Of a stretch of DNA of 42,326 nucleotides, positions 1-16,868 are shown in pieces. Both the position numbers and the translations under genes were made by a program. The notes beneath the pieces are model-generated. The model saw nothing but the letters and a program-made list of their open reading frames with translations. It made no database searches and was not told where the DNA came from. Positions within the stretch are counted from its first letter, which is position 1. Every line of letters begins with the position of its first letter. Origin of the DNA: an uncultured Nitrospira sp. (GTDB taxonomy: Bacteria > Nitrospirota > Nitrospiria > Nitrospirales > Nitrospiraceae); the NCBI GenBank assembly GCA_964478915.1, contig CAYZKG010000004.1:1-42326 (forward strand). Direction: 5' to 3'.

Positions 1-522
1 CTTGTCCGCAGCCGCTCCCGGGGGTAGATCGGTCAGGAGGTAATCGAGCTCTCCCCAGATGATGTCCGCGAGGAATTCCCGGATCACGTTCATTTCCATG
101 ACTCCCAGCCAGACCGGGCTGAGATCCATCGGCCCCTTCCAGCGAACCGGCGAGGCCTCCTGGAGGAAAAAGTCCATGGATCCGACCTTGATGCCCAGCG
201 GTCCTATCGGCGGCACCGCGCCGTTGGGAGTCAACGTCAAGGATTGTCCGCGCATCCCGAGCATGCGAGGCACGCACGGGCCATTGAGGTCCACATCGAG
301 CAGCCCCACACGATACCCAAGCCGGGCGAACGCCAGCGCGAGGTTTACCGTGGTCATGCTTTTCCCCACGCCGCCTTTGCCGCTCATCACCACCAGCTTG
401 TGCCGGATGCCGACCATGCGGTCCTTGACCTGGCGCATCTGCTCGGTGATCTGCTGGACCACCTTGGCGTCGTCGGTGTATTGCAGCCTGCCCAGGATCG
501 CTTTTAAGTCTTTTTCAACCAT
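1..522 (-). CDS. Mrp/ApbC/NBP35-family Fe-S cluster carrier ATPase; only the N-terminal 174 codons are present because the 3' end runs off the window
   Basis: My own minus-strand translation from ATG (comp 520-522) reads MVEKDLKAILGRLQ...IRHKLVVMSGKGGVGKSMTTVNLALAFARLGYRVGLLDVDLNGPCVPRMLG. The deviant Walker A SGKGGVGKS plus LLDxDxxGP is the Mrp/MinD-superfamily signature. It is missing from the ORF track because no stop codon lies inside the window. Confidence 0.8.
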   Translation of the reverse strand, partial: MVEKDLKAILGRLQYTDDAKVVQQITEQMRQVKDRMVGIRHKLVVMSGKGGVGKSMTTVNLALAFARLGYRVGLLDVDLNGPCVPRMLGMRGQSLTLTPNGAVPPIGPLGIKVGSMDFFLQEASPVRWKGPMDLSPVWLGVMEMNVIREFLADIIWGELDYLLTDLPPGAAADK

Positions 523-674: not shown

Positions 675-2528
675 TCAAATGGAGTATTGGAACGTCGGCT
701 TACTGCCGATCGCCCTCGCCAGCACACCTCGACGCTTCAACTCCTCAAGGATCCGGCGAGCCGCTTCGTCGAAATCCTTCGGACCGGCGAACGCGAGGTC
801 CGTGTTCGAGGGAAGCGGCTCCTCGGCCTTGCTCATGTGCACCGCAATGAGCGGGGCGGGGTGAACCAATGTCCGGATGGCCTGATGGTCGGCCAGGCCG
901 AGGGCGTTGGTGGTGGACACCACGATCATGCCCGTATCGATCAGCAGACGAGCGACTTCCCCGAACCGCCGCACTATCTCGGCCGCGTCCGGCTCCGCGA
1001 GGTCGGCATCCAGTCCCCGTCTGAGGTTTTCGCCATCCAGCAGATACGCGTGGCGACCTTCGGCGACGAGCAGCGCCTCCAGCTTTCTGGCCAAAAATGA
1101 TTTGCCGGTATGGGCTGCCCCGGTAAACAGCACCATCGCGGCGCGGTGGCCGTATTGCTGCGCCCGATCCTCTAACTGCACCTCTCCCTTGACCCAGGCG
1201 AAGTCCCGCCGCCGCGCCTCGTTCCTGAGAATTTCCAGCTCGTCGTGCACGAGTTCGGTGACCACCCCGCCGCCGGCGATGTCGTAGTCGTCCACCACGA
1301 CGAATCGCCCCGTCACGGGGGAGGCGTCGTACAAGTCGAAGGCAATCGGCGATTTCGTGCGAAACGTGACTTCCGCCACCTCATTGCGCCCCACCGTGTG
1401 GCGATTGGGTCGTTCCTCCAGCTCCGCGGCATCCACGGTCCGGTGGAGGATGGCCACTTCGCACTCCACCTCTCGCGTGGCGAGCCGGAGCAGATACTTG
1501 CGGCCTCGCTCCAGAGGGCGCCGTCCCAACCAGAAGAGATTGGCCTTGAACGCCGTGGACACCAGCGGGAGGGCATCCTCATGGGAGGCGATCTCTCCGC
1601 GCTCGATGAAGATCTGCTCGTCCAGGGTGATCCCGATGGACTGGCCGGCCTGGGCCTCCGTCGGCGTCGGCTCCATGTTGAACGCCTCGATCGTCTTGAT
1701 GTTGACGGTCTTGTTCGACGGCGAAAACACGAGCTTGTCGCCCACTCTCAGCCGGCCGGCCGAGAGCCGCCCGGCCACGATCCGGCGGGCGTCGAACTTG
1801 TACACGTCCTGGACCGGGAACCGAAGAGCTTCCTCTGCTCCTCCGACCGCCCGCTTGAAGCATCCCAGCGTGTCCAGCACCGTGGGGCCGCGGTACCACG
1901 GCATCGAGTCGCTGAGCCGGACGATGTTGTCGCCCTCTTTGGCGCTGACCGGGATCACTCGCTCCGGGTTCACTTTCAGCCGTCCCAGGAAGTCGCGGTA
2001 TTCCCGTTCGATGGCGTCGAAGACCTCCTGGCGGTAGCCCACGAGGTCCATCTTGTTCACCACCACCGCCACCTGCTTGACCCCGAGCAGGGACAAGAGG
2101 TAGCCGTGCTTCTTGGACTGTTCCCTGACGCCTTCCAGGGCGTCGATCACCAGCAGGGCCGCGTCGGCGCGGGCGGCCCCGGAGATCATGTTCTTGAGAA
2201 ATTCCTTGTGGCCCGGCGCATCGATGATGATGTACTGACGGTTGTTCCAGGAGAAAAAGGTCCGGGCGGTGTCGATCGTGATGCCTTGCTCCTGTTCTTC
2301 CAGGAAGGCATCGAACAAGAACGCGTATTCGAACTGTTTTCCCTGCTGGCGGCAGATGGCCTGAACTCGCTCGAGCTTCCCGCTGGCCAACGAGCCTGTA
2401 TCGGCGTACAGCCGCCCGAGCAGGGTCGACTTGCCGTGATCCACGTGCCCGACCAGCACAATATTGAGATGGTCCTTCGGCTGCGTGGGATGAATGGATC
2501 TGAGCAGGGGAGTCGGCACGGTCGGCAT
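675..2528 (-). CDS. cysN: Sulfate adenylyltransferase subunit 1 (CysN GTPase) fused to a degenerate APS-kinase-like C-terminal domain
   Basis: 617-aa ORF. GTPase motifs [14 protein letters not shown] and NKMD are present and the EF-Tu-like domains II/III follow. The C-terminal ~165 aa resemble CysC ([33 protein letters not shown]) but lack several canonical motifs. It starts 3 nt after the cysD stop. Confidence 0.9.
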
Positions 2529-2531
2529 GGA

Positions 2532-3329
2532 CTACATGTACCCGTCTTTGCGGAGCAGCTCCATTCCGCGTCCTTCGTCCTGCGCGCGCCCTGCCCGCTC
2601 GGCGACGGTGGTTTGCCGCAGCTCCTCGATGATATCGTCCACGGTCTTTGCGGTGGACCGGATCGGGAAGGTGCACGGGGCGCATCCGAGGCTCCGGTAC
2701 CGCGTGCCGTCTCCCCGGTCCAGGTACAGATCCATGAACGGGATGCCCTCGAGCTTGATGTACTCCCAGATGTTGATCTCGGTCCAGTCCAGCAACGGAT
2801 GGATGCGAATATGCGTGCCGGCCGGGAAAGCCGTCTTGAACTGGTCCCACAGTTCAGGCGGCTGGTCCCGGAAATCCCATTCGTTGTTCTTGTCGCGGGG
2901 CGAGAAGTACCGTTCCTTCGCGCGCGTTCCTTCCTCGTCGGCCCTGACCCCGAGGATGATCCCGGTATAGCCTTTTTCATCCAGCACCTGCTTCATGGCG
3001 TTGGTCTTCAGCGCGGTGCAGCAGACGGTGCGGCCGAGGGTATGGTTCATGCCGTTGGCGAGCGCCTCCTTGTTCTGGCCGATCACCAGATTCAGCCGCC
3101 ATTCCCGGGCGAGCCGATCGCGGTATTCGATCATGGCCGGAATCTTGTAACTCGTGTCGATGTGGATCAGTGGAAACGGCACGTGGCCGAGGAAGGCCTT
3201 GCGGGCGAGCCAGAGCAGGACGGTCGAGTCCTTCCCCATGGACCACAGCATGGCGAGGTGATCGAAATGCTTGTAGGCCTCGCGAAGGATATAGATGCTC
3301 TGGTCTTCGAGCTGCCGGAGATGCTTCAT
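2532..3329 (-). CDS. cysD: Sulfate adenylyltransferase subunit 2 (CysD)
   Basis: Translation reads [22 protein letters not shown]...[19 protein letters not shown]...[10 protein letters not shown]...[18 protein letters not shown], with the PP-loop SxGKDS. I chose the internal ATG at comp 3327-3329, which forms an ATGA overlap with the upstream stop. The track ORF extends to 3491 through Gly/Pro-rich non-homologous sequence. Confidence 0.92.
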
Positions 3330-4375
3330 GCCGCTGAGACCCCTGATGTGATCGATGTGGCCGTGAGCTCCGACAGTTTCCGGGCGGCCGCCCCCGACTC
3401 CAACAGGCGCTGGGCCCCCGGCACCGCCGCCGAGATCGAGAGGGCCTTGCCGGCTGCATACAGGAGCATCGCGGCGTTCAAGACGACCCAATCGCGCTGG
3501 CTGCCCTGGAACTCGTTGGTGATGATGCGCCGCAGCAGCGCCGCCTCCTGGTCTGCCTGGCTCGGGGGAAACCCGGCCATGCTCTGGAAGGAGCCGGAGG
3601 TGAGCCCGACATCTTTGGGGTGCAGCGAGAGCGGCAGGAGCCGATCGTCGCGAATCTCTAGAACCTTGGTCACGGAGGAGATGGACAGCTCCGGATCTCC
3701 TTCCACCCCGCGCAGCACCAGAGCCCGTTGGCAGCCAAGTATCCTGAGCGCCTCGGTCACCTTGTCGAAATACGGCGGATGGGAGATGCCGATCACCTGG
3801 GAGGCCGCCCGGGCTGGATTGAGCATGCGGGCGACGGGGTGAAACAAGGTGCGGACGCCAAGCTCCTGTCGGAGGTCGAGGAAACGGGCGATCGGGGGGT
3901 GATACAGCGCAATGTCCAAATAGGCGAAGCCCTTGGCCGCCAGATCCTCGGCCACGCGTCTTGGCTCTCGATCGACCGGAACGCCGAGGGTGGCCAACAC
4001 GGCGGAGATTCCTGCTCGTGCCGGTGCCGCCTCGTAGCCGTGCATCAGGATGAACGCGCCGCCCGCTGCTGCGACGATGGCCGCGGCGACAGCGGCATGG
4101 AATGTCTCCTGCTTTCCGGCATACGCGGGCAGATCCACCAGTGCGGGCGACGGCGCAGCCGGCACGGGCGCCACGTACTCCCGAGCCGTTGCGGTGAACG
4201 CCGCCAGCTCGCTGACCGATTCCATCTTGATTCGCATGGCCATCAGGAACCCACCCACCTGCACGGGCGTCGCTTGCCCTTCGATCAAGAGGCGCATGGC
4301 CTGCTTCGCCTCTTCCCAGGTCAGGTCCTTGGAGGCTTTCGGCCCTTTGCCGATCTTGGCAATGAACCTCTGCAT
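3326..4375 (-). CDS. TrpD2/YbiB-like protein (glycosyltransferase family 3 fold, anthranilate-PRTase paralogue without the PRPP motifs)
   Basis: It is collinear with TrpD throughout ([15 protein letters not shown].., [42 protein letters not shown]). However, GTGGDG is replaced by AYAGKQ and KHGNRxxSS by MHGYEAAPA. The N-terminus [14 protein letters not shown] resembles YbiB as I remember it. Start taken at ATG comp 4373-4375 (MQRFIAKIG), preceded by GAGGAGGAA. The track start at 4393 is a GTG inside the heptad repeat. Confidence 0.7.
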
Positions 4376-4380
4376 TTCCT

Positions 4381-4415
4381 CCTCACCCCTCACGCCTTAC
4401 GCCTCACGCCTTACG
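4381..4415. repeat. One-armed heptanucleotide array, (CGTRAGG)5 in mRNA sense, between the dsrE-like and trpD2-like genes
   Basis: Plus strand: CCTCACC CCTCACG CCTTACG CCTCACG CCTTACG. On the transcribed minus strand this reads CGTAAGG CGTGAGG CGTAAGG CGTGAGG GGTGAGG and runs directly into GAGGAAATG. Confidence 0.8.
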
Positions 4416-4420
4416 ATGAA

Positions 4421-4834
4421 TCAGAACGTCAGCACGTGGTCGGCTTGCGCGACTTCTTCCTTCCAGAACGCTTCGGCCGCTTGGACTTCGTCCAGTTCGG
4501 GAATCAGATGCTCCACCTGCAGCTCGAAATACTCCATCGAGCTCCGGCAGATGGAGAATTTGGCGTCGCCCTTCTCCTTGATCTCTCGCAGGATTGCCGC
4601 CAGGTCGTTCTGTTTACGTTCGCGCAGCATCTCGCGGACCTTCGACTCGCGGCCACGGTACGCCTCAGAAAACGTCAGCTCCTTGATCTTGTCGACGGTC
4701 AGCTTGGCGGCCGCTTCGTCACAGAACAGGATGCTAACCTGGACGCCGGATGCGACGGCAATCCTGGCCAGTTCGCAGGCTTGCAGCAGGTTGTTGTAGG
4801 CACCTCGGGTCACGATCATCGCCAGCTTCTTCAC
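4421..4834 (-). CDS. DsrE/DsrF-like (COG2210-type) small sulfur-relay family protein
   Basis: 137 aa. MKKLAMIVTRGAYNNLLQACELARIAVASGVQVSILF.. fits the typical DsrE-fold N-terminus. A Cys lies in the ..KFSICRSSMEYF.. context. GTG start at comp 4832-4834, with GGGAG 7 nt upstream. Confidence 0.6.
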   Translation of the reverse strand: MKKLAMIVTRGAYNNLLQACELARIAVASGVQVSILFCDEAAAKLTVDKIKELTFSEAYRGRESKVREMLRERKQNDLAAILREIKEKGDAKFSICRSSMEYFELQVEHLIPELDEVQAAEAFWKEEVAQADHVLTF

Positions 4835-4850
4835 GGTCAGTCTCCCAACT

Positions 4851-4914
4851 GTGATAGTGATGCGTCATGCCTAACAGGTATCTGTGATGAACTCATCACG
4901 CATCACGCTTCACG
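4851..4914. repeat. Heptanucleotide-periodic imperfect hairpin between cysH and the dsrE-like gene; it overlaps the cysH stop
   Basis: GTGATAG TGATGCG TCATG ... CTCATCA CGCATCA CGCTTCA CG. 4857-4869 (GTGATGCGTCATG) pairs with 4894-4906 (CATCACGCATCAC) at 12 of 13 positions. The sense-strand unit is CGTGATG. Confidence 0.7.
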
Positions 4915-5638
4915 TCTTATTGTGGAGGCCGCACTCGGTCTTGGCGAAGTTCTTCCACCGGCCCGACCGAGCGTCTTCGCCCGGGAACACCGGTGCAGTG
5001 CAGTGAGTGCAACCGATGCTGGGGTACTGCTGGTCATGCAGGGGGTTGTATGGGACATCGTTGGCCCTGATATAGGTCCAGACGTCCGCCGTCTTCCAGG
5101 CGGCCAGTGGATTCACCTTGACCAACCGGAACTTCGTATCCCATTCGATCACGCGCGCGTGGGCCCGTGTCGGGGCCTGCTCCCTCCGGATACCGGTGAT
5201 CCAGGCCGAATAGCCGCTCAGGACGCGCGTCAGCGGTTCCACTTTGCGCAACTGGCAGCAGCGATCGGGGTCACGCAGCCACAGCGCTTCCCCGTATTGC
5301 GCTGCCTGCTGTTCCGGGGTGAGTTGGGATTTCACCTGGATGACCTGCGAGGGCTGGAGGCCGTACTTGGCCACGATCCGGTCCCGGACGCCGTAGGTTT
5401 CAGGAAAGAGAAAGTCAGTGTCCAGATAAAACAACGGCGTCCGCGGATTGATCCGGTGGATCATATCCACGAGCACCACATCTTCCGCGCCGAAGCTGCA
5501 CGCCAGCACGATCCCCGGGAAATACCGCTTCAGGGCGTACCGCAACACCGCCTCCGGCGGTTGCGTGTCAAACGCGTCGCCGACCGCCTTCAGCTCTTCC
5601 TCCAACGGCTGGCTCTGTGCCTTAACGTCTTCGGTCAC
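4910..5638 (-). CDS. cysH: Adenylylsulfate (APS) reductase, thioredoxin-dependent Fe-S type of the CysH family
   Basis: 242 aa. The C-terminal ECGLH motif (KTECGLHNKT) is present. So are the CC...CxxC cluster cysteines (DRCCQLRK, SIGCTHCT), which distinguish APS reductases from PAPS reductases. Confidence 0.9.
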   Translation of the reverse strand: MTEDVKAQSQPLEEELKAVGDAFDTQPPEAVLRYALKRYFPGIVLACSFGAEDVVLVDMIHRINPRTPLFYLDTDFLFPETYGVRDRIVAKYGLQPSQVIQVKSQLTPEQQAAQYGEALWLRDPDRCCQLRKVEPLTRVLSGYSAWITGIRREQAPTRAHARVIEWDTKFRLVKVNPLAAWKTADVWTYIRANDVPYNPLHDQQYPSIGCTHCTAPVFPGEDARSGRWKNFAKTECGLHNKT

Positions 5639-5667
5639 CTGTATTCCTCAGCATGCGCCCGCGCTGC

Positions 5668-8202
5668 TTATCCCTCGACTTTTTCAACCAGTAGCTTATA
5701 GTGCGCCGCCTCCGGTTCCAGCGGCTCCTCCGCCAGGATCTTGTGGCCGTCATTCCGCAGGCTCATCGGGACGTTCTTGATCGGCTCGCCCGCATCGAGC
5801 CATACCTCGAGGTACTGCCCCGCGTCCATCATCTCCAGCTTGAGCTTCGTTTTGACGTAGTTCAGCGGACACATCACGCCGCGGAGGTCGAGCACCGGCG
5901 TGTCGGTAGGTTCAGCGGCGCGCGGGGTGGTTAAACCGGCGCGCGGCTGATCGCTTGGTGTCCCGCGCTCTGCGCCCTCGGCCGCGGCGAGCTTGAGGTC
6001 CTTGCCCATCTGCTCGGTCGCGGCCTTGCAGGCCTCCACGAACCCCCGTGCGAAGTCGATCTTGCCGCCTGCAAACTCCGGGGTGGTCTCTTTGGGACCC
6101 AGGTCCCCGATCTGGGCGCCGAGATTCCGGTACGAACCCGGCACAACGCCGGTCTCCGTCAGTCGCCGCTCGAATTCCAAAAAGGTCTCTGCATCGGTGG
6201 CGGGGTCAATCCCTTCGGTCACCAGCAACGCTTTCGCCCCGGCCAGCACCGCCCGGTAGGCTTTGTTCACCGCCACGGAGTATTGGTGCTTGTCGGCCAG
6301 CAGCCGGGCCTGGTACAGCTCCTGCTCGGCCTCAAGGATGCGGTTGTCGATCATCTCCAAGGCGCCGCCGGCGCATTCACCGGGACCCAGATCCTCGGTC
6401 ACGAATTCTTCATCGCCTTCCCAGTCGTAATAGTAGCTCGGGTCCTGCTCGAAGCCGGGCACGATCGTGAACGGGATCAGTTCCTCTTTGAGCTTGGCCT
6501 TTCCGGCTCGCGCAATGAAGGCCGGGAGGCTCTCCCCTTCGCATCGGTCCCGCCGGTACACGGCCAGGAGGTGGGAGACGGCCGCCGGCACATTTCTCGC
6601 CGGGAGCTTGACGGTCATCTGGCCGATTTTGGCCGTGCCGTTTACCTGTCCGCCGAGGTGCAGCTCGTAGAACGGTGCGACATGGTCGCCGATGCGCTTT
6701 CCCACCCCATGCAGGCCGATCGTGGCGATATGGTGCTGTGCGCAGGAATTGTGGCAGCCGCTGATTTTGACGCTCACCCCTTTGAGATCGGCAGGGGTTC
6801 GGCCCGGCGGAAATATTTCGGCCATGGCCCGCGCCAATCCCTTGGAGGAGGTGATCCCGAGTCCGCAGGTGTCGGTCCCGGGACAGGCCGTGATGTCTTC
6901 GACGAACTCTGCCCCCGGATCGGCCAGACCGTGTTCGGCCAGCGCGGCGTACAGCGCTTCCACCAGGGACTCCGGGACCCACCGGATAATCAGGTTTTGG
7001 TTGATCGTCGTCCGGACGTTGCCGTTGGCATAGGCCTCGGCCAGATCGGCGACCACGTACATCTGCTCGGTGGTGATATCCCCCATGGGGAGCTTGATCA
7101 CCACGGCCACGTATCCGGATTGCTTCTGCGGAACCACGTTCGTGCGGCGCCACATCCCGTAGGCGGAAGCCGACAGGTCTGGCTCACTCTCGAAGTCGTG
7201 ATGCCCGTTGCCCCCATCGCCGTGTTGCCCATTGCCGAGCGCCGAGCCGCCGTTGCCGTGGGCGGTGCGACCGGTCGGCATGACCAGGGGGACCGGCGAG
7301 TCGTCGTGCTGCAGGAGCCTGATCAGCCCCCGGCCCGCGCGGGCATGGCCCATGCTCGCGTAGGCGTCTTCCCAGAGCTGCTTGAATTTCTCAAAGCCGA
7401 CCTTCTCAATGATGAACTTCATCCGGGCCTTGTTGCGGTTCTTCCGGTTCCCGAAGGTGTCGAACACCTTGAGGATCGCTTCGATCGTCGGAATCAGATC
7501 ATCCATCGGCACGAATTCACGCAGGATGTGCCCGATGCGGGGGGCGGAGCCGAGCCCGCCGCCGACCGACATCCGGAAGCCGATGGTGCCGTCCTCCCGC
7601 CGTGCCGCCAAGAGCCCGATGTCGTGAATCGGGGTCAGCGCGCAGTCGTGCCGGCAGCCCGAGAAAGCGATTTTGAACTTTCTGGGCAGACTTTGATTCA
7701 GCGGGTTCCGTAACAGATGGAGCGCCACGGTCTTGGCATAAGGCGTGACATCAAAGACTTCGCCGGGGCAGATGCCGGCAAGGTGGCACGCCGTGACGTT
7801 CCGGACCGTGTTGGCGCAGGCTTCTCTCGTGGTGAGCCCCACTTCGGCCAGGCCGCGCATGACGGTTCCCACGTCCTTCAGTTGCACGAAATGAAGCTGG
7901 ATATCCTGTCGCGTGGTGACATGGCCGATCCCGGTCGCATAGGTATCGGCCGATTCGCCGATGCGCCGCAATTGATTGGCGGTGAGGCCGCCGAATGGAA
8001 TCTTGATGCGGACCATCTGGACGCCGGGCTGGCGCTGCCCGTAGATCCCGTGCTGTAGGCGAAAGGGCTTGAAGATGTCGCTCGGGATTTCTCCGGCTTC
8101 CAACCGCTGAACTTCCCCTTCGAAGGCTTCGATCTCCTCGAGAATCTCGGGCGGGATCGGAGACGTTTTGATCTCGAAGGTCTTGGTATAGGGATTCGCC
8201 AT
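5668..8202 (-). CDS. sir: Ferredoxin-type assimilatory sulfite reductase hemoprotein fused to a helical domain and a C-terminal TusA/SirA-like domain
   Basis: 844 aa. It has two nitrite/sulfite-reductase repeats. The siroheme/4Fe-4S cysteines are CPGTDTC (C440, C446) and SGCHNSC (C483, C487). A Gly/His/Asn-rich linker spans aa 314-335. A helical region spans aa ~612-735. The last ~77 aa, VLDLRGVMCPLNYVKTKLKLEMM..YLEVWLD..., match the TusA pattern (Cys778). Confidence 0.85.
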   Translation of the reverse strand: MANPYTKTFEIKTSPIPPEILEEIEAFEGEVQRLEAGEIPSDIFKPFRLQHGIYGQRQPGVQMVRIKIPFGGLTANQLRRIGESADTYATGIGHVTTRQDIQLHFVQLKDVGTVMRGLAEVGLTTREACANTVRNVTACHLAGICPGEVFDVTPYAKTVALHLLRNPLNQSLPRKFKIAFSGCRHDCALTPIHDIGLLAARREDGTIGFRMSVGGGLGSAPRIGHILREFVPMDDLIPTIEAILKVFDTFGNRKNRNKARMKFIIEKVGFEKFKQLWEDAYASMGHARAGRGLIRLLQHDDSPVPLVMPTGRTAHGNGGSALGNGQHGDGGNGHHDFESEPDLSASAYGMWRRTNVVPQKQSGYVAVVIKLPMGDITTEQMYVVADLAEAYANGNVRTTINQNLIIRWVPESLVEALYAALAEHGLADPGAEFVEDITACPGTDTCGLGITSSKGLARAMAEIFPPGRTPADLKGVSVKISGCHNSCAQHHIATIGLHGVGKRIGDHVAPFYELHLGGQVNGTAKIGQMTVKLPARNVPAAVSHLLAVYRRDRCEGESLPAFIARAGKAKLKEELIPFTIVPGFEQDPSYYYDWEGDEEFVTEDLGPGECAGGALEMIDNRILEAEQELYQARLLADKHQYSVAVNKAYRAVLAGAKALLVTEGIDPATDAETFLEFERRLTETGVVPGSYRNLGAQIGDLGPKETTPEFAGGKIDFARGFVEACKAATEQMGKDLKLAAAEGAERGTPSDQPRAGLTTPRAAEPTDTPVLDLRGVMCPLNYVKTKLKLEMMDAGQYLEVWLDAGEPIKNVPMSLRNDGHKILAEEPLEPEAAHYKLLVEKVEG

Positions 8203-8223
8203 ATGCGCTCCTCGGACCGTTCT

Positions 8224-8682
8224 TTAGATGTGATACATGGGGCTTCGCTGCTGCTGCAGGGTTTGATGCCGGTCGGACAGCTCCTTCAGCGTGATGCCGC
8301 TGAGCACCGCAAGCTCGGCCTGCCGCACGCGCTCCCAGACTTGAGTGAGCAGGGATTCCGGAACCGACAGCCGGCGGCCGTTTCCCTCACCGGCGTATGG
8401 CCCCCTGGCTGACGAATGGAGCAGCGGACCGTCCAGCGCTTCCACGATCTCGGCGAGCGAGATCGTTGAGGGGGACTTCCTCAACAGGTAGCCGCCCTTC
8501 GCTCCGCGGAGGCTCTCCACGAGTCCGGCCTTCTTCATTGAGGCAAGAACCTGCTCGAGAAATCTGAGCGGAATAGCCTGTCGCCGGGCAATCGCTCTGG
8601 CCTGGACAGGCGCCTCTCCGTTCTGGAGGGCCAGGTCCAAGGCTGCGAGAATCCCATAGGCTGACTTAACAGATAGGCGCAT
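8224..8682 (-). CDS. Rrf2-family transcriptional regulator lacking cysteines (CymR-like rather than IscR/NsrR-like)
   Basis: 152 aa. MRLSVKSAYGILAALDLAL...IPLRFLEQVLASMKKAGLVESLRGAKGGYLL is the Rrf2 winged helix. The protein contains no Cys at all. It is the first gene of the cys operon. Confidence 0.85.
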   Translation of the reverse strand: MRLSVKSAYGILAALDLALQNGEAPVQARAIARRQAIPLRFLEQVLASMKKAGLVESLRGAKGGYLLRKSPSTISLAEIVEALDGPLLHSSARGPYAGEGNGRRLSVPESLLTQVWERVRQAELAVLSGITLKELSDRHQTLQQQRSPMYHI

Positions 8683-8685
8683 TTC

Positions 8686-8716
8686 CTACTATTCCGATAG
8701 GATTAATGTACAGTAG
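8686..8716 (-). promoter_or_regulatory. Candidate operator: nested imperfect palindromes in the rrf2 leader
   Basis: CTACT (8686-8690) and AGTAG (8712-8716) flank the 16-bp imperfect palindrome TATTCCGATAGGATTA (8690-8705, 6 of 8 pairs). The site lies between the predicted -10 and the rrf2 ATG. Confidence 0.3.
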
Positions 8717-8719
8717 CTA

Positions 8720-8749
8720 TTTATAATGCTGAAGCTCTTAAGATGTCAA
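8720..8749 (-). promoter_or_regulatory. Candidate sigma70-type promoter of the rrf2-cys operon
   Basis: The minus strand reads TTGACA (comp 8744-8749), an 18-nt spacer, then TATAAA (comp 8720-8725), about 38 nt upstream of the rrf2 ATG. Confidence 0.45.
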
Positions 8750-9115: not shown

Positions 9116-9769
9116 ATGTCGCTCGTCTCTATATCGCCGTTACACCCATCCCAGGAAAGACCCTTCCGGCTCGGTCGCCGACCCTACAAGGCTAAACGCT
9201 CCCTGTTCAGCGTGCTCCTTCTCAGCAGCGATCCCGACCTTCAAGCCCATCTCAGGCAGTCTCTCCGGGAAGCCACCCTGACCGTCGCCAAGGATCCGGC
9301 GTCCCTGCCCCGGTCCGAAATGAAGCGAACGTATGATGGGGTGATCCTCGAGACCAAGGACAGCATGGTCGAAGCATTGGCGAAGCTTGAACGGTCCATC
9401 GATCCCTCCAGGACCTTTATCCTGGCCGGGGCCCGGCCGGTACTCAAACACGCCTCGCATGTCGTTCGCGCCGTCGCCGGCAGCAACGGCTTCTTTGCGA
9501 AGGCGGCGGGTCAGGAGTTTTCCCTGGAGGATTACGTCGAATCCAAGCTGACAGACTTCGTGAAGGGCATGAAGCACACGTCCGCGCGGAACCTGTACGC
9601 CATGCTGATGGAAGCGGTTGAGCGGCCGTTGATCACCCTCGTGCTGAAGGAAACCAACGGCAATCAGACTCAAGCGGCGCACGTGCTGGGAATGAACCGC
9701 AACACGCTCCGGAAAAAGATCGCAGAATTTCGTATTTCCGTGAAGCGGGGAAAGAGCGTCGCGCCGTAG
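9116..9769 (+). CDS. Fis-family DNA-binding protein with a ~120-aa N-terminal extension
   Basis: The C-terminal ~90 aa are collinear with Fis: LEDYVESKLTDFVKGM..ARNLYAMLMEAVERPLITLVLKETNGNQTQAAHVLGMNRNTLRKKIAEFRI. The N-terminal part (VLLLSSDPDLQAHLRQSL...YDGVILET) is vaguely receiver-like. The start is uncertain because there is no clear SD at 9116. Confidence 0.75.
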   Translation: MSLVSISPLHPSQERPFRLGRRPYKAKRSLFSVLLLSSDPDLQAHLRQSLREATLTVAKDPASLPRSEMKRTYDGVILETKDSMVEALAKLERSIDPSRTFILAGARPVLKHASHVVRAVAGSNGFFAKAAGQEFSLEDYVESKLTDFVKGMKHTSARNLYAMLMEAVERPLITLVLKETNGNQTQAAHVLGMNRNTLRKKIAEFRISVKRGKSVAP

Positions 9770-10241: not shown

Positions 10242-10316
10242 AGGCGCGTAGCTCAGGGGGAGAGCGCTACCTTGACACGGTAGAGGTCGACGGTTCAAGA
10301 CCGTCCGCGCCTACCA
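10242..10316 (+). tRNA. tRNA-Val: tRNA-Val (anticodon GAC), CCA encoded
   Basis: Hand-folded cloverleaf: acceptor AGGCGCG/CGCGCCT, D stem GCTC/GAGC, anticodon stem CTACC/GGTAG with loop TTGACAC, T stem GACGG/CCGTC with loop TTCAAGA, discriminator A, CCA. Total 75 nt. Confidence 0.93.
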
Positions 10317-13582: not shown

Positions 13583-15286
13583 TCAAGCCAGCAGCTCCGC
13601 GACTGCATTGACTTCCAGCTCGAAGACCACGGTGGGCATGCCGACCTGCCACTGCTCCAGCACCTCCGGGTGGAGTTCGCCGATCAGGCCGATAGATCGG
13701 CCCTGAGACGTGATCCAACCGCTCCGGCCTTCCAGAAAGGACGGGTGGCAGTTAGGCTCGAGCGAGTAGGGCAGATTGAGGTAGAACAGCAGCAGATCGA
13801 GGCACGAGTGGACTTCGGAGAAGTTGGCCGTCGCGTGTGCGATCAAGGCGCCGAGGATCATCATGGTGCGCGAGCCGAACTCTTCTCCCGGGTCGGGCAC
13901 CGCCACTTCGCCGACCTCGAACAGTCGATGGGGGTAGAACGCCCGCGTCGAAGCCGATTCGACTCGGAGCAGCGAGGGTGTCATCCATTGGCGGAGGCAC
14001 GAATGGTTCTGGGACATCACATTGTCGATCTCGACCACCTGATCCATGTCACTGCCGGCCAGCCGCATCCGCTCGACGAGCTCCTGGCGCGAGGTGATCA
14101 CGTTGGAGATTACCTCCTGAAACCCGATCCCGACCATCAGCTCGCGCACGCGGTCAGAGACCTGTTCCAGGCGGGACAAGCCGCCCACCGTGAACTGGGA
14201 CGGCATCATCAGCTCGAACCTGTCATAACCGAGGCTGATGGCCACGTCCTCGACGACGTCCACGTCATGCATCATGTCGTTTCGGTAAGGCGGAAGCTTC
14301 ACGGAGATCCCGTCGCGAGACAGTTTGGCTTGGTAGCCGTAAGCCAGTAGCGCGTCTCGCACCTGGCCGGCCGGCAGGGGCTGCCCCAGTGCGCTCTGGA
14401 CCGCCGTGAGCGGCAGCGATCGGGTCCTCCCAAGATCGTGCGGAGTTCGAACCCGTTTCCCGATTTCCGTGGCCTGGGGATAGAAGATCTCCACCGGCTC
14501 GATCGCGGCACCGCGATCCGCCAGGTTCACGGCCAGGATGTTCAGGGCCAACAGCACCATCCGCAGATCGGTGCCGGTCACCTCCACCAACAGCTCCTTG
14601 TCCCCCACCTGGACCTCGCCGATATCCCGGCTGTTGATGATCGGTGGAAACGAGAGCACACGGCCGTGGGCATCGCGCAGCAACGGCACGCCGGGCTTTC
14701 CGTCCAGAATGGAGCCGTACTCGATTCCTTTGGGGTGCACGGCTAAAATTTCCCGCAATGTGATCTCTTCTTCGAAGCCCAAGGGGGTGAAGCGAACCTC
14801 GTCAGGATTCACCAGGGCATAGGTGACCGGAAAGGCGATCCGCTGGAGGCGGTAGAGCCCGATGGATACGGAACGGCGCTTACGCCCGAAGATATCGGCC
14901 AACTTCTCTTGCGTCTGAATCAACTGGATCAGGCCTTCGTCCGTGACCGAGCAGCCGACAGCGGCGCAGGCGGCCACATATGGCCGAACCTGCTCCAGGC
15001 CCGGCTCCACCACGAGGCGGCGCTTCGGCCGCAGCGCGGGCTTGAAGCAGGCGTATGCGGGTGCGGATCCGGCGAGCTTGATGCGAATCTGGCGGGCGAT
15101 TCCCTCGCAACACCAGAGATCAGGACGGTTGCTGTCCCGCACTTCGATCCGCAGCTCGCCGGTGGCCGGATTGTGATCCTTCAGCTCCCCTTTCACTATA
15201 GGAAGCCAGGACTCCACCTCGTTCGCGTCCATGGGACGGCCCACGAGGTGCTCCAGGTCTGCGCAGCTCACGGAAATGGTGGGCAT
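13583..15286 (-). CDS. pheT: Phenylalanyl-tRNA synthetase beta subunit, archaeal/eukaryal type
   Basis: 567 aa, against roughly 800 aa for the bacterial type. The N-terminus MPTISVSCADLEHLVGRPMD...IEVRDSNRPDLWCCEGIARQIR matches the archaeal PheT pattern. The B3/4 and B5 regions follow. It lacks the bacterial N-terminal OB domain and C-terminal B8 domain. Confidence 0.88.
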   Translation of the reverse strand: MPTISVSCADLEHLVGRPMDANEVESWLPIVKGELKDHNPATGELRIEVRDSNRPDLWCCEGIARQIRIKLAGSAPAYACFKPALRPKRRLVVEPGLEQVRPYVAACAAVGCSVTDEGLIQLIQTQEKLADIFGRKRRSVSIGLYRLQRIAFPVTYALVNPDEVRFTPLGFEEEITLREILAVHPKGIEYGSILDGKPGVPLLRDAHGRVLSFPPIINSRDIGEVQVGDKELLVEVTGTDLRMVLLALNILAVNLADRGAAIEPVEIFYPQATEIGKRVRTPHDLGRTRSLPLTAVQSALGQPLPAGQVRDALLAYGYQAKLSRDGISVKLPPYRNDMMHDVDVVEDVAISLGYDRFELMMPSQFTVGGLSRLEQVSDRVRELMVGIGFQEVISNVITSRQELVERMRLAGSDMDQVVEIDNVMSQNHSCLRQWMTPSLLRVESASTRAFYPHRLFEVGEVAVPDPGEEFGSRTMMILGALIAHATANFSEVHSCLDLLLFYLNLPYSLEPNCHPSFLEGRSGWITSQGRSIGLIGELHPEVLEQWQVGMPTVVFELEVNAVAELLA

Positions 15287-15293
15287 AGTCTTA

Positions 15294-16868
15294 TCACAAC
15301 GGTGTACTTCGCATGGTGCGGATCAGCTCGAGGTCGGCGGTAAACAGGTTCCGGATGTCATGGATGCCGAGGGCGATCATCGCCATGCGATCGAGGCCCA
15401 GTCCCCAGGCGATGACCGGCACATCGACGCCGAGCGGCAGGGTCACTTCCGGCCGAAGCAGCCCCGCGCCACCGAGCTCCATCCAGCCCAAGCGTGGGTG
15501 CCGGACATGGACCTCGACGGACGGCTCGGTGAATGGAAAGTAGGCCGGAGTGAAGCGGCTTTCCTGGGCCTGTGCCACCTCGCGCGCGAACAGCTCCAGG
15601 AGGCCCAGCAGAGTCCGAAAGTTGATATCCGCCCCCAGGACGATTCCTTCCACCTGAAAGAAGTCCGTGGCGTGCGTGGCATCCACCTGGTCGTACCGGA
15701 AGCAGCGGGCGATCGAGAAATATTTGCCCGGGATGGACGGTTTCGCGGCCAGCGTGCGAGCGGACACCGCCGTGCCCTGACTGCGCAGTACCAGTCGGTG
15801 GGCGCGGTCGCGATCGTAGTCATACCCCCACCCCGTGGAGCCGGTCTTCCAGCCATCCCGATGCACGGCGGCGACTTGAGACAGCAACAGGCTGGCCGTG
15901 CCGCGGCCATGCGTCGGGTCCTTGACGAAATACACGTCATGGATCGCGCGAGCCGGGTGGAACTGGGGCATATACAGCGCGTCCATGTTCCAAAACTCGG
16001 TTTCGACGAGAGGCCCGCGCATCTCCTGGAACCCCGTGCTTACGAGCTTCCACTTGACGCCGTCGAGAAACTCCCGGTAGGCGTGGCGCTTGCCGACCGC
16101 CATCCGGGGAGGGCGCAAGCTGATGGTGTATTTTCGGAACCGTTTGCCGCGCCAGGCTCCGTCCTTCAGCAACTCGGGGGTCAGTTGAGAGACTTCCGCT
16201 TTGCCGCCTTCCTGTAAGAGCGCTTGAGCGGCCTGCCCTTGCGGGGTCAGCGTGTACCAGCGCTCGATCCGGTCGTCGATGCGAAACGGCTCATGGGTCC
16301 TACCCCGTTTCACCGCATGCTGCTTGATGATCAGCCGCATCGGCTCCTGAAAGGACGCCAGCTCGCGCGGCCCTGCGCGGAGGAATTGAAACAGGGTCCG
16401 CAGGGATTCCGCGACCCGGCTTGGCGTCCCGGTGGCTTCGACATAGCCGCCCGGGACGATCCGGATGGCGCCTTCCTGCTTCAACGCGCCGATGGCCCCG
16501 CTGATCTCCGCGGGGTCCAGCTTCTCGCGCGCCTGGATATCCTGGATCGTCAACCGCCGTTCGGTCTCGCGGGCCTCCCGCAGCGCGGACAGGATGCGCT
16601 CGACCGGCGCGTATTTCTCGAAATATTGCTTGCCCACGTCGGTCAGCGACACGATGGAGGTGACGGTCTCCTGCTGCACGCTGATGAGGGACTTGGTCAA
16701 CAGCCACCCGATGGCCATGCTGACCTGCGACGGCTCGAGGCCGGCATGCCGGGCGATCTCGTCTTCCCGGAGAGAGCCGGCCGGGGCGTGCGGCTGGTGC
16801 TGGGTCAGGGCCGTGAGGACCTTGATCTCCAGCGGATGCAGGCTTTCGATGAGGGTCGTGTCGCTCAC
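15294..16868 (-). CDS. pheS: Phenylalanyl-tRNA synthetase alpha subunit, archaeal/eukaryal type
   Basis: 524 aa, against roughly 340 aa for the bacterial type. It has a long N-terminal winged-helix-like region, then the class II core (FHPARAIHDVYF, GKYFSIARCFRYD, FFQVEGIV, FPFTEPS, GLGLDRMAM). The GTG start forms a GTGA overlap with the rpe stop. Confidence 0.88.
   Translation of the reverse strand: MSDTTLIESLHPLEIKVLTALTQHQPHAPAGSLREDEIARHAGLEPSQVSMAIGWLLTKSLISVQQETVTSIVSLTDVGKQYFEKYAPVERILSALREARETERRLTIQDIQAREKLDPAEISGAIGALKQEGAIRIVPGGYVEATGTPSRVAESLRTLFQFLRAGPRELASFQEPMRLIIKQHAVKRGRTHEPFRIDDRIERWYTLTPQGQAAQALLQEGGKAEVSQLTPELLKDGAWRGKRFRKYTISLRPPRMAVGKRHAYREFLDGVKWKLVSTGFQEMRGPLVETEFWNMDALYMPQFHPARAIHDVYFVKDPTHGRGTASLLLSQVAAVHRDGWKTGSTGWGYDYDRDRAHRLVLRSQGTAVSARTLAAKPSIPGKYFSIARCFRYDQVDATHATDFFQVEGIVLGADINFRTLLGLLELFAREVAQAQESRFTPAYFPFTEPSVEVHVRHPRLGWMELGGAGLLRPEVTLPLGVDVPVIAWGLGLDRMAMIALGIHDIRNLFTADLELIRTMRSTPL

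Follow-up and report, generated by a model that had tools for sequence, protein, structure and literature searches.

A sulfite reductase fused to a TusA domain and a DsrE-like protein in the sulfate-assimilation operon of Nitrospirales: a possible persulfide relay

How does a bacterium that assimilates sulfate hand on the sulfur that its sulfite reductase (SiR) has reduced? In sulfate assimilation, CysDN forms adenosine 5′-phosphosulfate (APS), CysH reduces APS to sulfite, and a siroheme SiR reduces the sulfite. A 42,326-nt stretch of DNA from an uncultured Nitrospira sp. (contig CAYZKG010000004.1; the window, GC content ~63%, whose numbering is used throughout) raises this question by encoding, in a single sulfate-assimilation operon with these enzymes, members of the TusA and DsrE families, which are established persulfide and thiosulfonate carriers that act together. 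Here, we identify a TusA domain covalently joined to an assimilatory SiR and accompanied by dedicated genes for a DsrE-like and a TrpD-like protein in a cysDN-cysH-sir operon. This arrangement is new and is fixed across an order, the Nitrospirales, and its parts are of known kinds. We suggest that it provides a product-side persulfide relay from SiR via TusA to the DsrE-like protein, a reading drawn from the fusion, its conservation and its neighbourhood, and one that we hold with moderate confidence, evenly balanced between acceptance and doubt. In soils, waters and treatment plants, nitrite oxidation and complete ammonia oxidation are mainly the work of Nitrospira and its relatives, and we know of no examination of cysteine synthesis in these bacteria. 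The full-text literature yielded no description of TusA fused to SiR, nor of a cys operon with a dsrE-like gene; its coverage was incomplete and an earlier mention is possible.

The seven genes of the operon extend from 8682 to 675 and all lie on the minus strand in the open reading frame (ORF) list, in the order rrf2, the gene for the SiR-HEPN-TusA fusion, cysH, the dsrE-like gene, the trpD-like gene, cysD and cysN (Table 1). A first-pass annotation of this DNA had described seven tightly packed, co-directional genes in this order; on recomputation, the coordinates were the same and the junctions again came to 21, 29, 75, 45, −4 (an ATGA overlap) and 3 nt. The 45-nt junction presumes that the trpD-like gene starts with the ATG at 4375; a GTG at 4393 is open as well, and the orthologues always start in the ATG column of the alignment. 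For a census of related loci, we used one genome per GTDB species and seeded the search with the DsrE-like alignment, which gave 70 loci, 63 of them from Nitrospirales. The segments scored were Rrf2, the SiR core, the linker, TusA, CysH, the DsrE-like protein, the TrpD-like protein, CysD, CysN and the kinase-like tail. All 63 Nitrospirales loci are colinear and co-directional up to the contig limits (38 are complete), over GC contents of 46.5 to 66.9% and with median protein identities to the window from 47% (Rrf2) to 86% (CysD), and the same operon is present in one further, more divergent lineage. This colinearity indicates that the arrangement is not chance packing. The SiR core and TusA share a single uninterrupted frame wherever both are visible (57/57 loci). 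The trpD-like gene is present in 62 loci and missing from one, L058, whose contig stops inside the dsrE-like gene. Thus, wherever related genomes were examined, the accessory genes accompany the cys genes, as expected from the first-pass annotation. The genes flanking the operon vary between clades. The homologue lists for SiR-TusA and the TrpD-like protein were filled by Nitrospira orthologues, and those homologues that carry a source name assign the window to Nitrospira or Nitrospirales.

The fusion protein has 844 amino acids (aa) and, according to Pfam, the two-fold NIR_SIR plus NIR_SIR_ferr architecture with TusA at its C terminus. Domains were called throughout with Pfam and with curated NCBI/TIGR profile models, and the scores were compared with the curated cutoffs. 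Both pseudo-halves of the SiR core retain C-x5-C...C-x3-C, and C129, C139, C145, C183, C187, C440, C446, C483 and C487 are invariant in 49 Nitrospirales sequences. The best PDB matches of the core are the ferredoxin nitrite reductase 3b0h and 1zj8, an M. tuberculosis protein deposited as NirA; all equivalog models for SiR score under their cutoffs, the best being "NirA family protein" (293 bits) and ferredoxin nitrite reductase. From the operon context, we infer that the substrate is sulfite rather than nitrite. A separate observation concerns the N-terminal half of the core (7642-7818, minus strand; residues 129-187), which contains a complete second C-x5-C...C-x3-C motif composed of C139, C145, C183 and C187, plus C129. 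Its spacing is the same as that of the C-terminal cluster site, and plant nitrite reductase is without these cysteines. By analogy with DsrA/DsrB, this motif may represent an extra cluster or siroheme site.

The part of the protein behind the core was modelled with AlphaFold2 (residues 595-844, from 29 homologues) as a helical bundle (607-744), a disordered segment and a beta-alpha-beta-alpha-beta-beta domain. The bundle, absent from the first-pass annotation, is a HEPN-fold domain that matches 2hsb in Foldseek (template modelling (TM) score 0.81, root-mean-square deviation (rmsd) 2.0). In 58 Nitrospirales orthologues, its Cys725 is invariant and Cys610, in a low-confidence stretch just N-terminal of the first HEPN helix, is 97% conserved. 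The sequence of the domain contains no Rx4-6H motif, and we rejected an identity as a HEPN RNase because this nuclease motif is missing. The tether that follows has a predicted local distance difference test (pLDDT) score below 50 over ~25 residues. The TusA motif DLRGVxC778PxNYVKTK is essentially invariant in the same 58 orthologues, and Cys778 (codon 5869-5871) is invariant in 58/58. The TusA domain matches E. coli TusA as seen in the IscS-TusA complex (3lvj_C; TM 0.80, rmsd 2.0) and also YeeD, and the last 70 residues match the TusA-like protein TM0983 (PDB 1jdq). By analogy with these carriers, Cys778 is a predicted site for carriage of persulfide or thiosulfonate.

The second carrier candidate is the 137-aa protein encoded downstream of cysH. 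Its AlphaFold2 model has a pLDDT of 95.5 and finds 2qs7 (SSO1126) as top Foldseek match (TM 0.89), followed by 3pnx (deposited as "putative sulfurtransferase DsrE"), YchN, DsrEFH and TusBCD. Cys96, in the motif FSxC (codon 4547-4549), occupies the same alignment column as the Cys of 2qs7 and 3pnx and starts the helix after the third strand, which is the position of the Cys in the family. All 20 Nitrospira-clade homologues have this cysteine, as do most of the distant relatives, and it is the candidate active cysteine; Cys20 is limited to the operon-embedded clade. The first-pass annotation had named a TusA-like tail and a DsrE-like small protein and had set their placement by profile searches, and the conservation of their cysteines, as tests. 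The tail was placed in the TusA family (PF01206) and the small protein in the DsrE family (PF02635 and PF13686), all above cutoff and with matching folds, and both cysteines proved to be conserved. The nearest relatives of the 137-aa protein in structure and sequence, with the Cys aligned, are 2qs7 and the DsrE3 proteins of the DsrE3/TusA pairs in hdr-like sulfur-oxidation clusters. However, identity to these is 21-24%, and the protein belongs to a narrow subfamily (at E 1e-3, a search of 1.84 billion proteins gave only 52 representatives at 50% identity) that in Nitrospirales has an assimilatory rather than a dissimilatory setting.

TusA and DsrE domains are also joined in YedF, for which a part in selenite reduction or selenium trafficking has been proposed, and the TusA-DsrE pair of the operon could serve such a purpose. 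The tail matches the YedF model weakly (38 bits, cutoff 79), and YedF-type TusA plus DsrE proteins are linked to SelD (PMC5322559). However, the DsrE-like protein lacks the CGxC motif of YedF in the alignment, all other genes of the operon belong to sulfate assimilation, and neither selD nor any other selenium gene is present among the window ORFs scanned. For this last reason we rejected a selenium pathway, which we consider extremely improbable.

The settings of the DsrE-like subfamily outside Nitrospirales offer an independent view of its partners. In the informative cases, the relatives have 40-47% identity. The adjacency to tusA known from DsrE3/TusA pairs recurs here: in a Gemmatimonadales genome, a free tusA is followed 90 nt downstream by the dsrE-like gene, and in the loci L074 (3672-5544) and L075 (88-1960), a dsrE/F/H-like trio and then tusA precede a gene of the DsrE-like subfamily, which overlaps tusA by 4 nt. 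The L074 cluster lies near queE-like and queC genes, a setting that suggests tRNA modification. In all three Omnitrophota loci, genes for an SiR-like protein, the DsrE-like protein and a MoeB/MoeZ-type ThiF-rhodanese protein directly follow one another in this order. MoeZ-type enzymes use sulfane sulfur to make protein thiocarboxylates, as in the CysO/MoeZ system of M. tuberculosis, and the parsimonious reading of the trio is reductase, then carrier, then consumer. In L065, the final junction of the trio is a 4-nt overlap, and siroheme-decarboxylase-like and radical-SAM genes lie upstream of the Omnitrophota trios. The contexts of relatives at ≤36% identity, and those of L064, L066 and L069, were uninformative.

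Altogether, these observations are consistent with a relay on the product side of the reductase, which we regard as the most likely explanation. We suggest that TusA, on its ~25-residue disordered tether behind the helical spacer, would swing to the active site of SiR, where Cys778 would take the reduced sulfur as a persulfide, i.e., as sulfane sulfur at the S0 level. The sulfur would then pass from Cys778 to Cys96 of the DsrE-like protein, and the latter would serve a sulfur-consuming enzyme encoded outside the window, for which a cysteine synthase and a thiocarboxylate-making MoeZ-type rhodanese are candidates. The consequence would be that little free sulfide is released. In a 2026 study, four assimilatory SiRs reportedly yielded S0 rather than H2S directly, and cysteine synthases favoured persulfide (PMC13188885), which makes the chemistry of such a relay plausible. 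The first-pass annotation had already proposed capture of the sulfur on TusA and its transfer to the DsrE-like protein; this interpretation is supported in part, by the fusion, the neighbourhood and the tusA and SiR-like contexts outside Nitrospirales.

Several points weigh against this relay. First, both the direction of sulfur flow and the species transferred are what we infer. Second, in the classical view, an assimilatory SiR carries out the full six-electron reduction to sulfide and does so without a carrier. Third, the TusA motif reads CPxN, with an invariant Asn, compared to the canonical D-x-R-G-x-x-C-P-x-P. Fourth, the DsrE-like protein scores only 21.8 bits against a cutoff of 210 with the curated DsrE2 model NF047629, and an activity is, therefore, not transferable to it from a characterised orthologue. 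Fifth, the SiR-like protein of the Omnitrophota trios scores best as a nitrite reductase. Finally, none of MoeZ, CysO and CysK is linked to the operon in the window ORFs scanned or in the Nitrospirales flanks sampled.

The same carriers could also act on the substrate side. TusA and the DsrE-like protein would then bring oxidised sulfur to the reductase, for example by presenting thiosulfate or an S-sulfonate on Cys778 to the siroheme, in a route for thiosulfate or carrier-bound sulfite. Homologues of TusA and DsrE3 reportedly carry thiosulfonate (Liu et al. 2014), cysH sits between the SiR-TusA and dsrE-like genes, and Foldseek matches the tail best to YeeD, from the YeeE-YeeD thiosulfate-uptake complex. 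The YeeD match, however, reflects only the common TusA fold, and neither the window nor the few operon flanks sampled showed a YeeE/TsuA thiosulfate transporter. Moreover, the position of the dsrE-like gene of Omnitrophota between genes for an SiR-like protein and a MoeZ type that needs sulfane sulfur fits a product hand-off better. We consider the substrate-side route unlikely.

The product-side relay has its closest counterparts among dissimilatory systems. Like the TusA-DsrEFH-DsrC-rDsrAB pathway of Allochromatium vinosum and other sulfur oxidisers, it would combine TusA and DsrE-fold carriers, each with one active Cys, with a siroheme SiR. It differs in that the SiR is a monomeric, assimilatory-type enzyme in a cysDN-cysH operon and the proposed flow is outward from the reductase, and in that TusA is covalently fused and a single small DsrE-like protein is present, with neither a DsrEFH heterohexamer nor DsrC. 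With DsrAB-DsrC of sulfate reducers, it would share a mobile cysteine able to reach the siroheme, as well as cluster motifs in both halves of the reductase. In that system, the swinging-arm cysteine, a feature of DsrC, traps an intermediate at the S0 level; here, by contrast, the carrier has the TusA fold and is tethered in cis, and there is no DsrMKJOP-type partner. A stronger version, in which SiR-TusA is the assimilatory counterpart of DsrAB-DsrC, with a four-electron stop at S0, direct loading of the sulfur onto its own tethered cysteine and fully protein-bound assimilation without free sulfide, appears doubtful to us. If true, the long-abandoned "carrier-bound" pathway of assimilation would have a natural version, and the dual cluster motifs of SiR would mark a form intermediate between assimilatory and dissimilatory reductases. 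The product-side relay itself would mean that primary sulfur assimilation has taken over the TusA/DsrE relay known from sulfur oxidation and tRNA thiolation. An SiR carrying its own carrier offers an experimental handle on how cells keep toxic sulfide from oxygen-respiring enzymes, and on delivery as sulfide versus sulfane, a question recently reopened (PMC13188885).

The remaining enzymes of the pathway bear on a third explanation. CysH, which the first-pass annotation had named as an Fe-S APS reductase, passes the model for the thioredoxin-dependent enzyme and has the corresponding motifs, C127-C128...C210-x2-C213 and ECGLH at 235-239. CysD contains C103-C104...C216-x2-C219, which is invariant in 53/53 sequences and has the same pattern as the Fe-S motif of APS reductase; E. 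coli CysD reads KH and CWPL there and contains, in addition, a 22-residue insertion that is missing here. With two sets of motifs in SiR and CC...CxxC in both CysH and CysD, the operon is unusually rich in cluster motifs. The carriers could be devoted to the care or protection of cofactors in an aerobe, supplying or recycling sulfur when Fe-S clusters are built or repaired in SiR, in CysH and possibly in CysD, or mopping up leaked sulfide or persulfide, with no bulk flux. E. coli TusA accepts sulfur from IscS (3lvj), one distant DsrE-like relative adjoins a peroxiredoxin gene, and a gene for an Mrp/ApbC-type Fe-S carrier follows cysN in 22 of 44 loci. These 22 loci all belong to one clade. The gene is absent, however, from half the lineages in which the seven-gene core is retained. 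In addition, the operon has no linked cysteine desulfurase, and the 1:1 covalent joining of carrier and reductase points to stoichiometric rather than occasional use. Cofactor care thus seems to us quite unlikely as the main role of these proteins.

Compared to the textbook operons (sirA-cysH and cysDNC of M. tuberculosis; cysDNC, cysH and cysIJ of E. coli), the CysD, CysN, APS reductase and ferredoxin-type SiR core are ordinary members, whereas the HEPN-TusA tail, the dsrE-like and trpD-like genes, the second SiR motif, the CC...CxxC of CysD and a lidless kinase-like tail on CysN are not found there. CysN scores 472 bits with the bifunctional CysNC model NF004035, under the cutoff of 715, and its APS_kinase match covers only positions 2-108 of the 152 profile positions. 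The first-pass annotation had called this domain degenerate. In agreement with this, compared to E. coli CysC it lacks the 23-residue lid (KGLYKKAR...FTGI) and the serine motif ISP, whereas the P-loop is retained; the tail is probably a non-catalytic nucleotide-binding domain. It occupies residues 436-617 (675-1220, minus strand) and retains both GxxxxGKS and LDGxNLR.

The TrpD-like protein has the two-domain PF02885 plus PF00591 fold of TrpD and TrpD2/YbiB. It passes the NCBI trpD model TIGR01245 (213.6 bits vs 199.05), scores higher against a true TrpD (PDB 4hkm, 156 bits) than against YbiB (79 bits), stays under the cutoff of the YbiB model NF006005 (149 bits vs 185, over residues 2-228 only) and is annotated by JGI as anthranilate phosphoribosyltransferase. 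However, in an alignment to 4hkm, GTGGD of the phosphoribosyl pyrophosphate (PRPP) loop has become PAYAG, KHGNR has become MHGYE and SGSAD has become AGISA, so that the PRPP and anthranilate motifs are lost. We rejected a true TrpD identity on account of this loss of catalytic motifs; it also makes the public name doubtful, and anthranilate phosphoribosyltransferase is probably a misnomer across Nitrospirales. An N-terminal IxKIGxGxK...DL motif is common to the protein and E. coli YbiB. Arg92 and Arg123 are conserved in TrpD2/YbiB and contribute to a positively charged groove (PMC10123104); among the TrpD-like orthologues, the Arg92 column holds Q/H/K/R and the Arg123 column R/P/G/S, and the isoelectric points (pI) range from 5.3 to 9.6. 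Both relatives also differ in setting, with a trp or dinG operon in place of a cys operon. The TrpD2/YbiB-like label of the first-pass annotation is imprecise: the N-terminal motif and the lost TrpD residues agree with it, but the scores favour TrpD and the YbiB arginines are not kept. Judged from these alignments, the protein belongs to the TrpD/TrpD2 fold family and has been remodelled catalytically, and neither label fits. It has no conserved cysteine and is, therefore, not a carrier; a role as ligand-binding or adaptor subunit is a weak guess.

The first gene of the operon encodes an Rrf2-family regulator that, as described in the first-pass annotation and as in CymR, contains no cysteine. 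It scores 97.8 bits with the CymR model NF047409, under the cutoff of 195. A promoter-like site lies 5′ of rrf2 and was overlooked by a scan for consensus promoters because the final base of its −10 box is A; a CTTGACA box with a TATAAA-like box is repeated 5′ of rrf2 in most of 45 loci. The palindromic operator candidate occurs once in the window. Its core, (A/T)TTCCTATCG, is found at the same location 5′ of rrf2 throughout the 45 loci, and the full palindrome ATTCCTATCGGAAT (ATTCC...GGAAT) is retained in the clade closest to the window and degenerate in a remoter clade; it is a probable binding site of Rrf2. The conserved promoter and operator before rrf2 fit a single autoregulated transcription unit, and together with the spacing of the genes they are the evidence that fits a single transcript. 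A scan for promoters and terminators found no internal minus-strand signal except one weak terminator-like hairpin within the SiR coding sequence. An Rfam scan of the operon found no riboswitch or leader RNA, a tRNA being the only match.

Without a cysteine, the regulator must rely on a partner or ligand for sensing sulfur; B. subtilis CymR acts through CysK. TusA or the DsrE-like protein could, accordingly, report sulfur status by its persulfidation and tune the enzymes or Rrf2, with the TrpD-like protein as partner for a ligand or nucleic acid. The resemblance of the CysN tail to a non-catalytic nucleotide-binding domain and the binding of nucleic acids by YbiB-type relatives of the TrpD-like protein (PMC10123104) would suit such a sensor. 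However, the unconserved Arg92 and Arg123 positions and the wide pI range speak against a nucleic-acid groove shared by the orthologues, and the genes that adjoin the DsrE-like subfamily elsewhere serve sulfur transfer rather than regulation. We regard this explanation as very unlikely.

Table 1. Positions of the features discussed, in window numbering except where another locus is named
Feature	Position	Strand	Evidence or remark
Promoter-like site	8720..8749	-	TTGACA 8749-8744, 18-nt spacer, TATAAA 8725-8720; 5′ of rrf2
Palindromic operator candidate AATCCTATCGGAATA	8690..8705	.	between −10 box and rrf2 ATG
Rrf2-family regulator, CymR-like, 152 aa	8224..8682	-	PF02082 E 1e-31; TIGR00738 109 bits vs 73.3
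Siroheme SiR core, residues 1-600	6403..8202	-	NIR_SIR x2, NIR_SIR_ferr x2
HEPN-fold helical domain, residues ~607-744	5971..6384	-	PF05168, 22.8 bits vs 22
Tether, residues ~745-768	5899..5970	-	variable, Pro/Ala/Ser/Thr-rich; unconserved in 58 orthologues
TusA domain, residues 769-844	5668..5898	-	PF01206 at 771-841, E 6.5e-15, 55.2 bits vs 28.6
CysH, thioredoxin-dependent Fe-S APS reductase, 242 aa	4910..5638	-	TIGR02055 239.4 bits vs 235.3
DsrE-fold protein, 137 aa	4421..4834	-	PF02635 32.1 bits vs 22.7; PF13686 30.4 vs 25
TrpD-like protein, phosphoribosyltransferase-III fold, 349 aa	3326..4375	-	PF00591 + PF02885
CysD, 265 aa	2532..3329	-	NF003587 356 bits vs 195; ATGA overlap with trpD-like stop
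CysN GTPase with truncated APS-kinase-like tail, 617 aa	675..2528	-	TIGR02034 353 bits vs 336
Mrp/ApbC-type Fe-S carrier ATPase gene	1-522	-	152 nt after cysN, co-directional; runs off window
Fis-type helix-turn-helix gene	9116-9769	+	divergent from rrf2
tRNA-Val(GAC)	10242-10316	+	just before thrS
pheST	13583-16868	-	PheS 524 aa; PheT 567 aa
Signalling protein, 1402 aa	20104-24312	+	Cache, ~five PAS, GGDEF, EAL
B12-binding radical SAM protein, 625 aa	33412-35289	+	between argD/argF/argG/argH and lysA/dapF/dapA/dapB
Omnitrophota trio, L065	8267-11568		SiR-like, DsrE-like, MoeB/MoeZ-type
Omnitrophota trio, L068	8001-10958		SiR-like, DsrE-like, MoeB/MoeZ-type
Omnitrophota trio, L070	~4445-6769		SiR-like, DsrE-like, MoeB/MoeZ-type

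Two long ORFs on the opposite strand of the operon were rejected as GC-rich artefacts. The GC content by codon position of the first (3728-5701, plus strand, 657 aa) is atypical of coding sequence, and the second (1245-3842, plus strand, 865 aa) is outcompeted by the overlapping minus-strand genes in selection based on third-position GC (GC3). As stated in the first-pass annotation, cysK, cysE and cysM were not found in the window, neither among the scanned ORFs nor in the thrS/infC region, a few small or late ORFs being unscanned. The other ORFs scanned in the window have housekeeping functions and comprise thrS, pheST, rpe, rsmB, fmt, the gene for a large PAS-GGDEF-EAL protein, and genes for arginine and lysine biosynthesis, between which the radical SAM gene lies. 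The Fis-type gene next to rrf2 is kept there in 18 of 37 loci. PheS has N-terminal winged-helix matches and PheT has a weak, sub-threshold match to B1 and a B5 domain; the sizes of both subunits are unusual for a bacterium, and the pair resembles the archaeal/eukaryal type.

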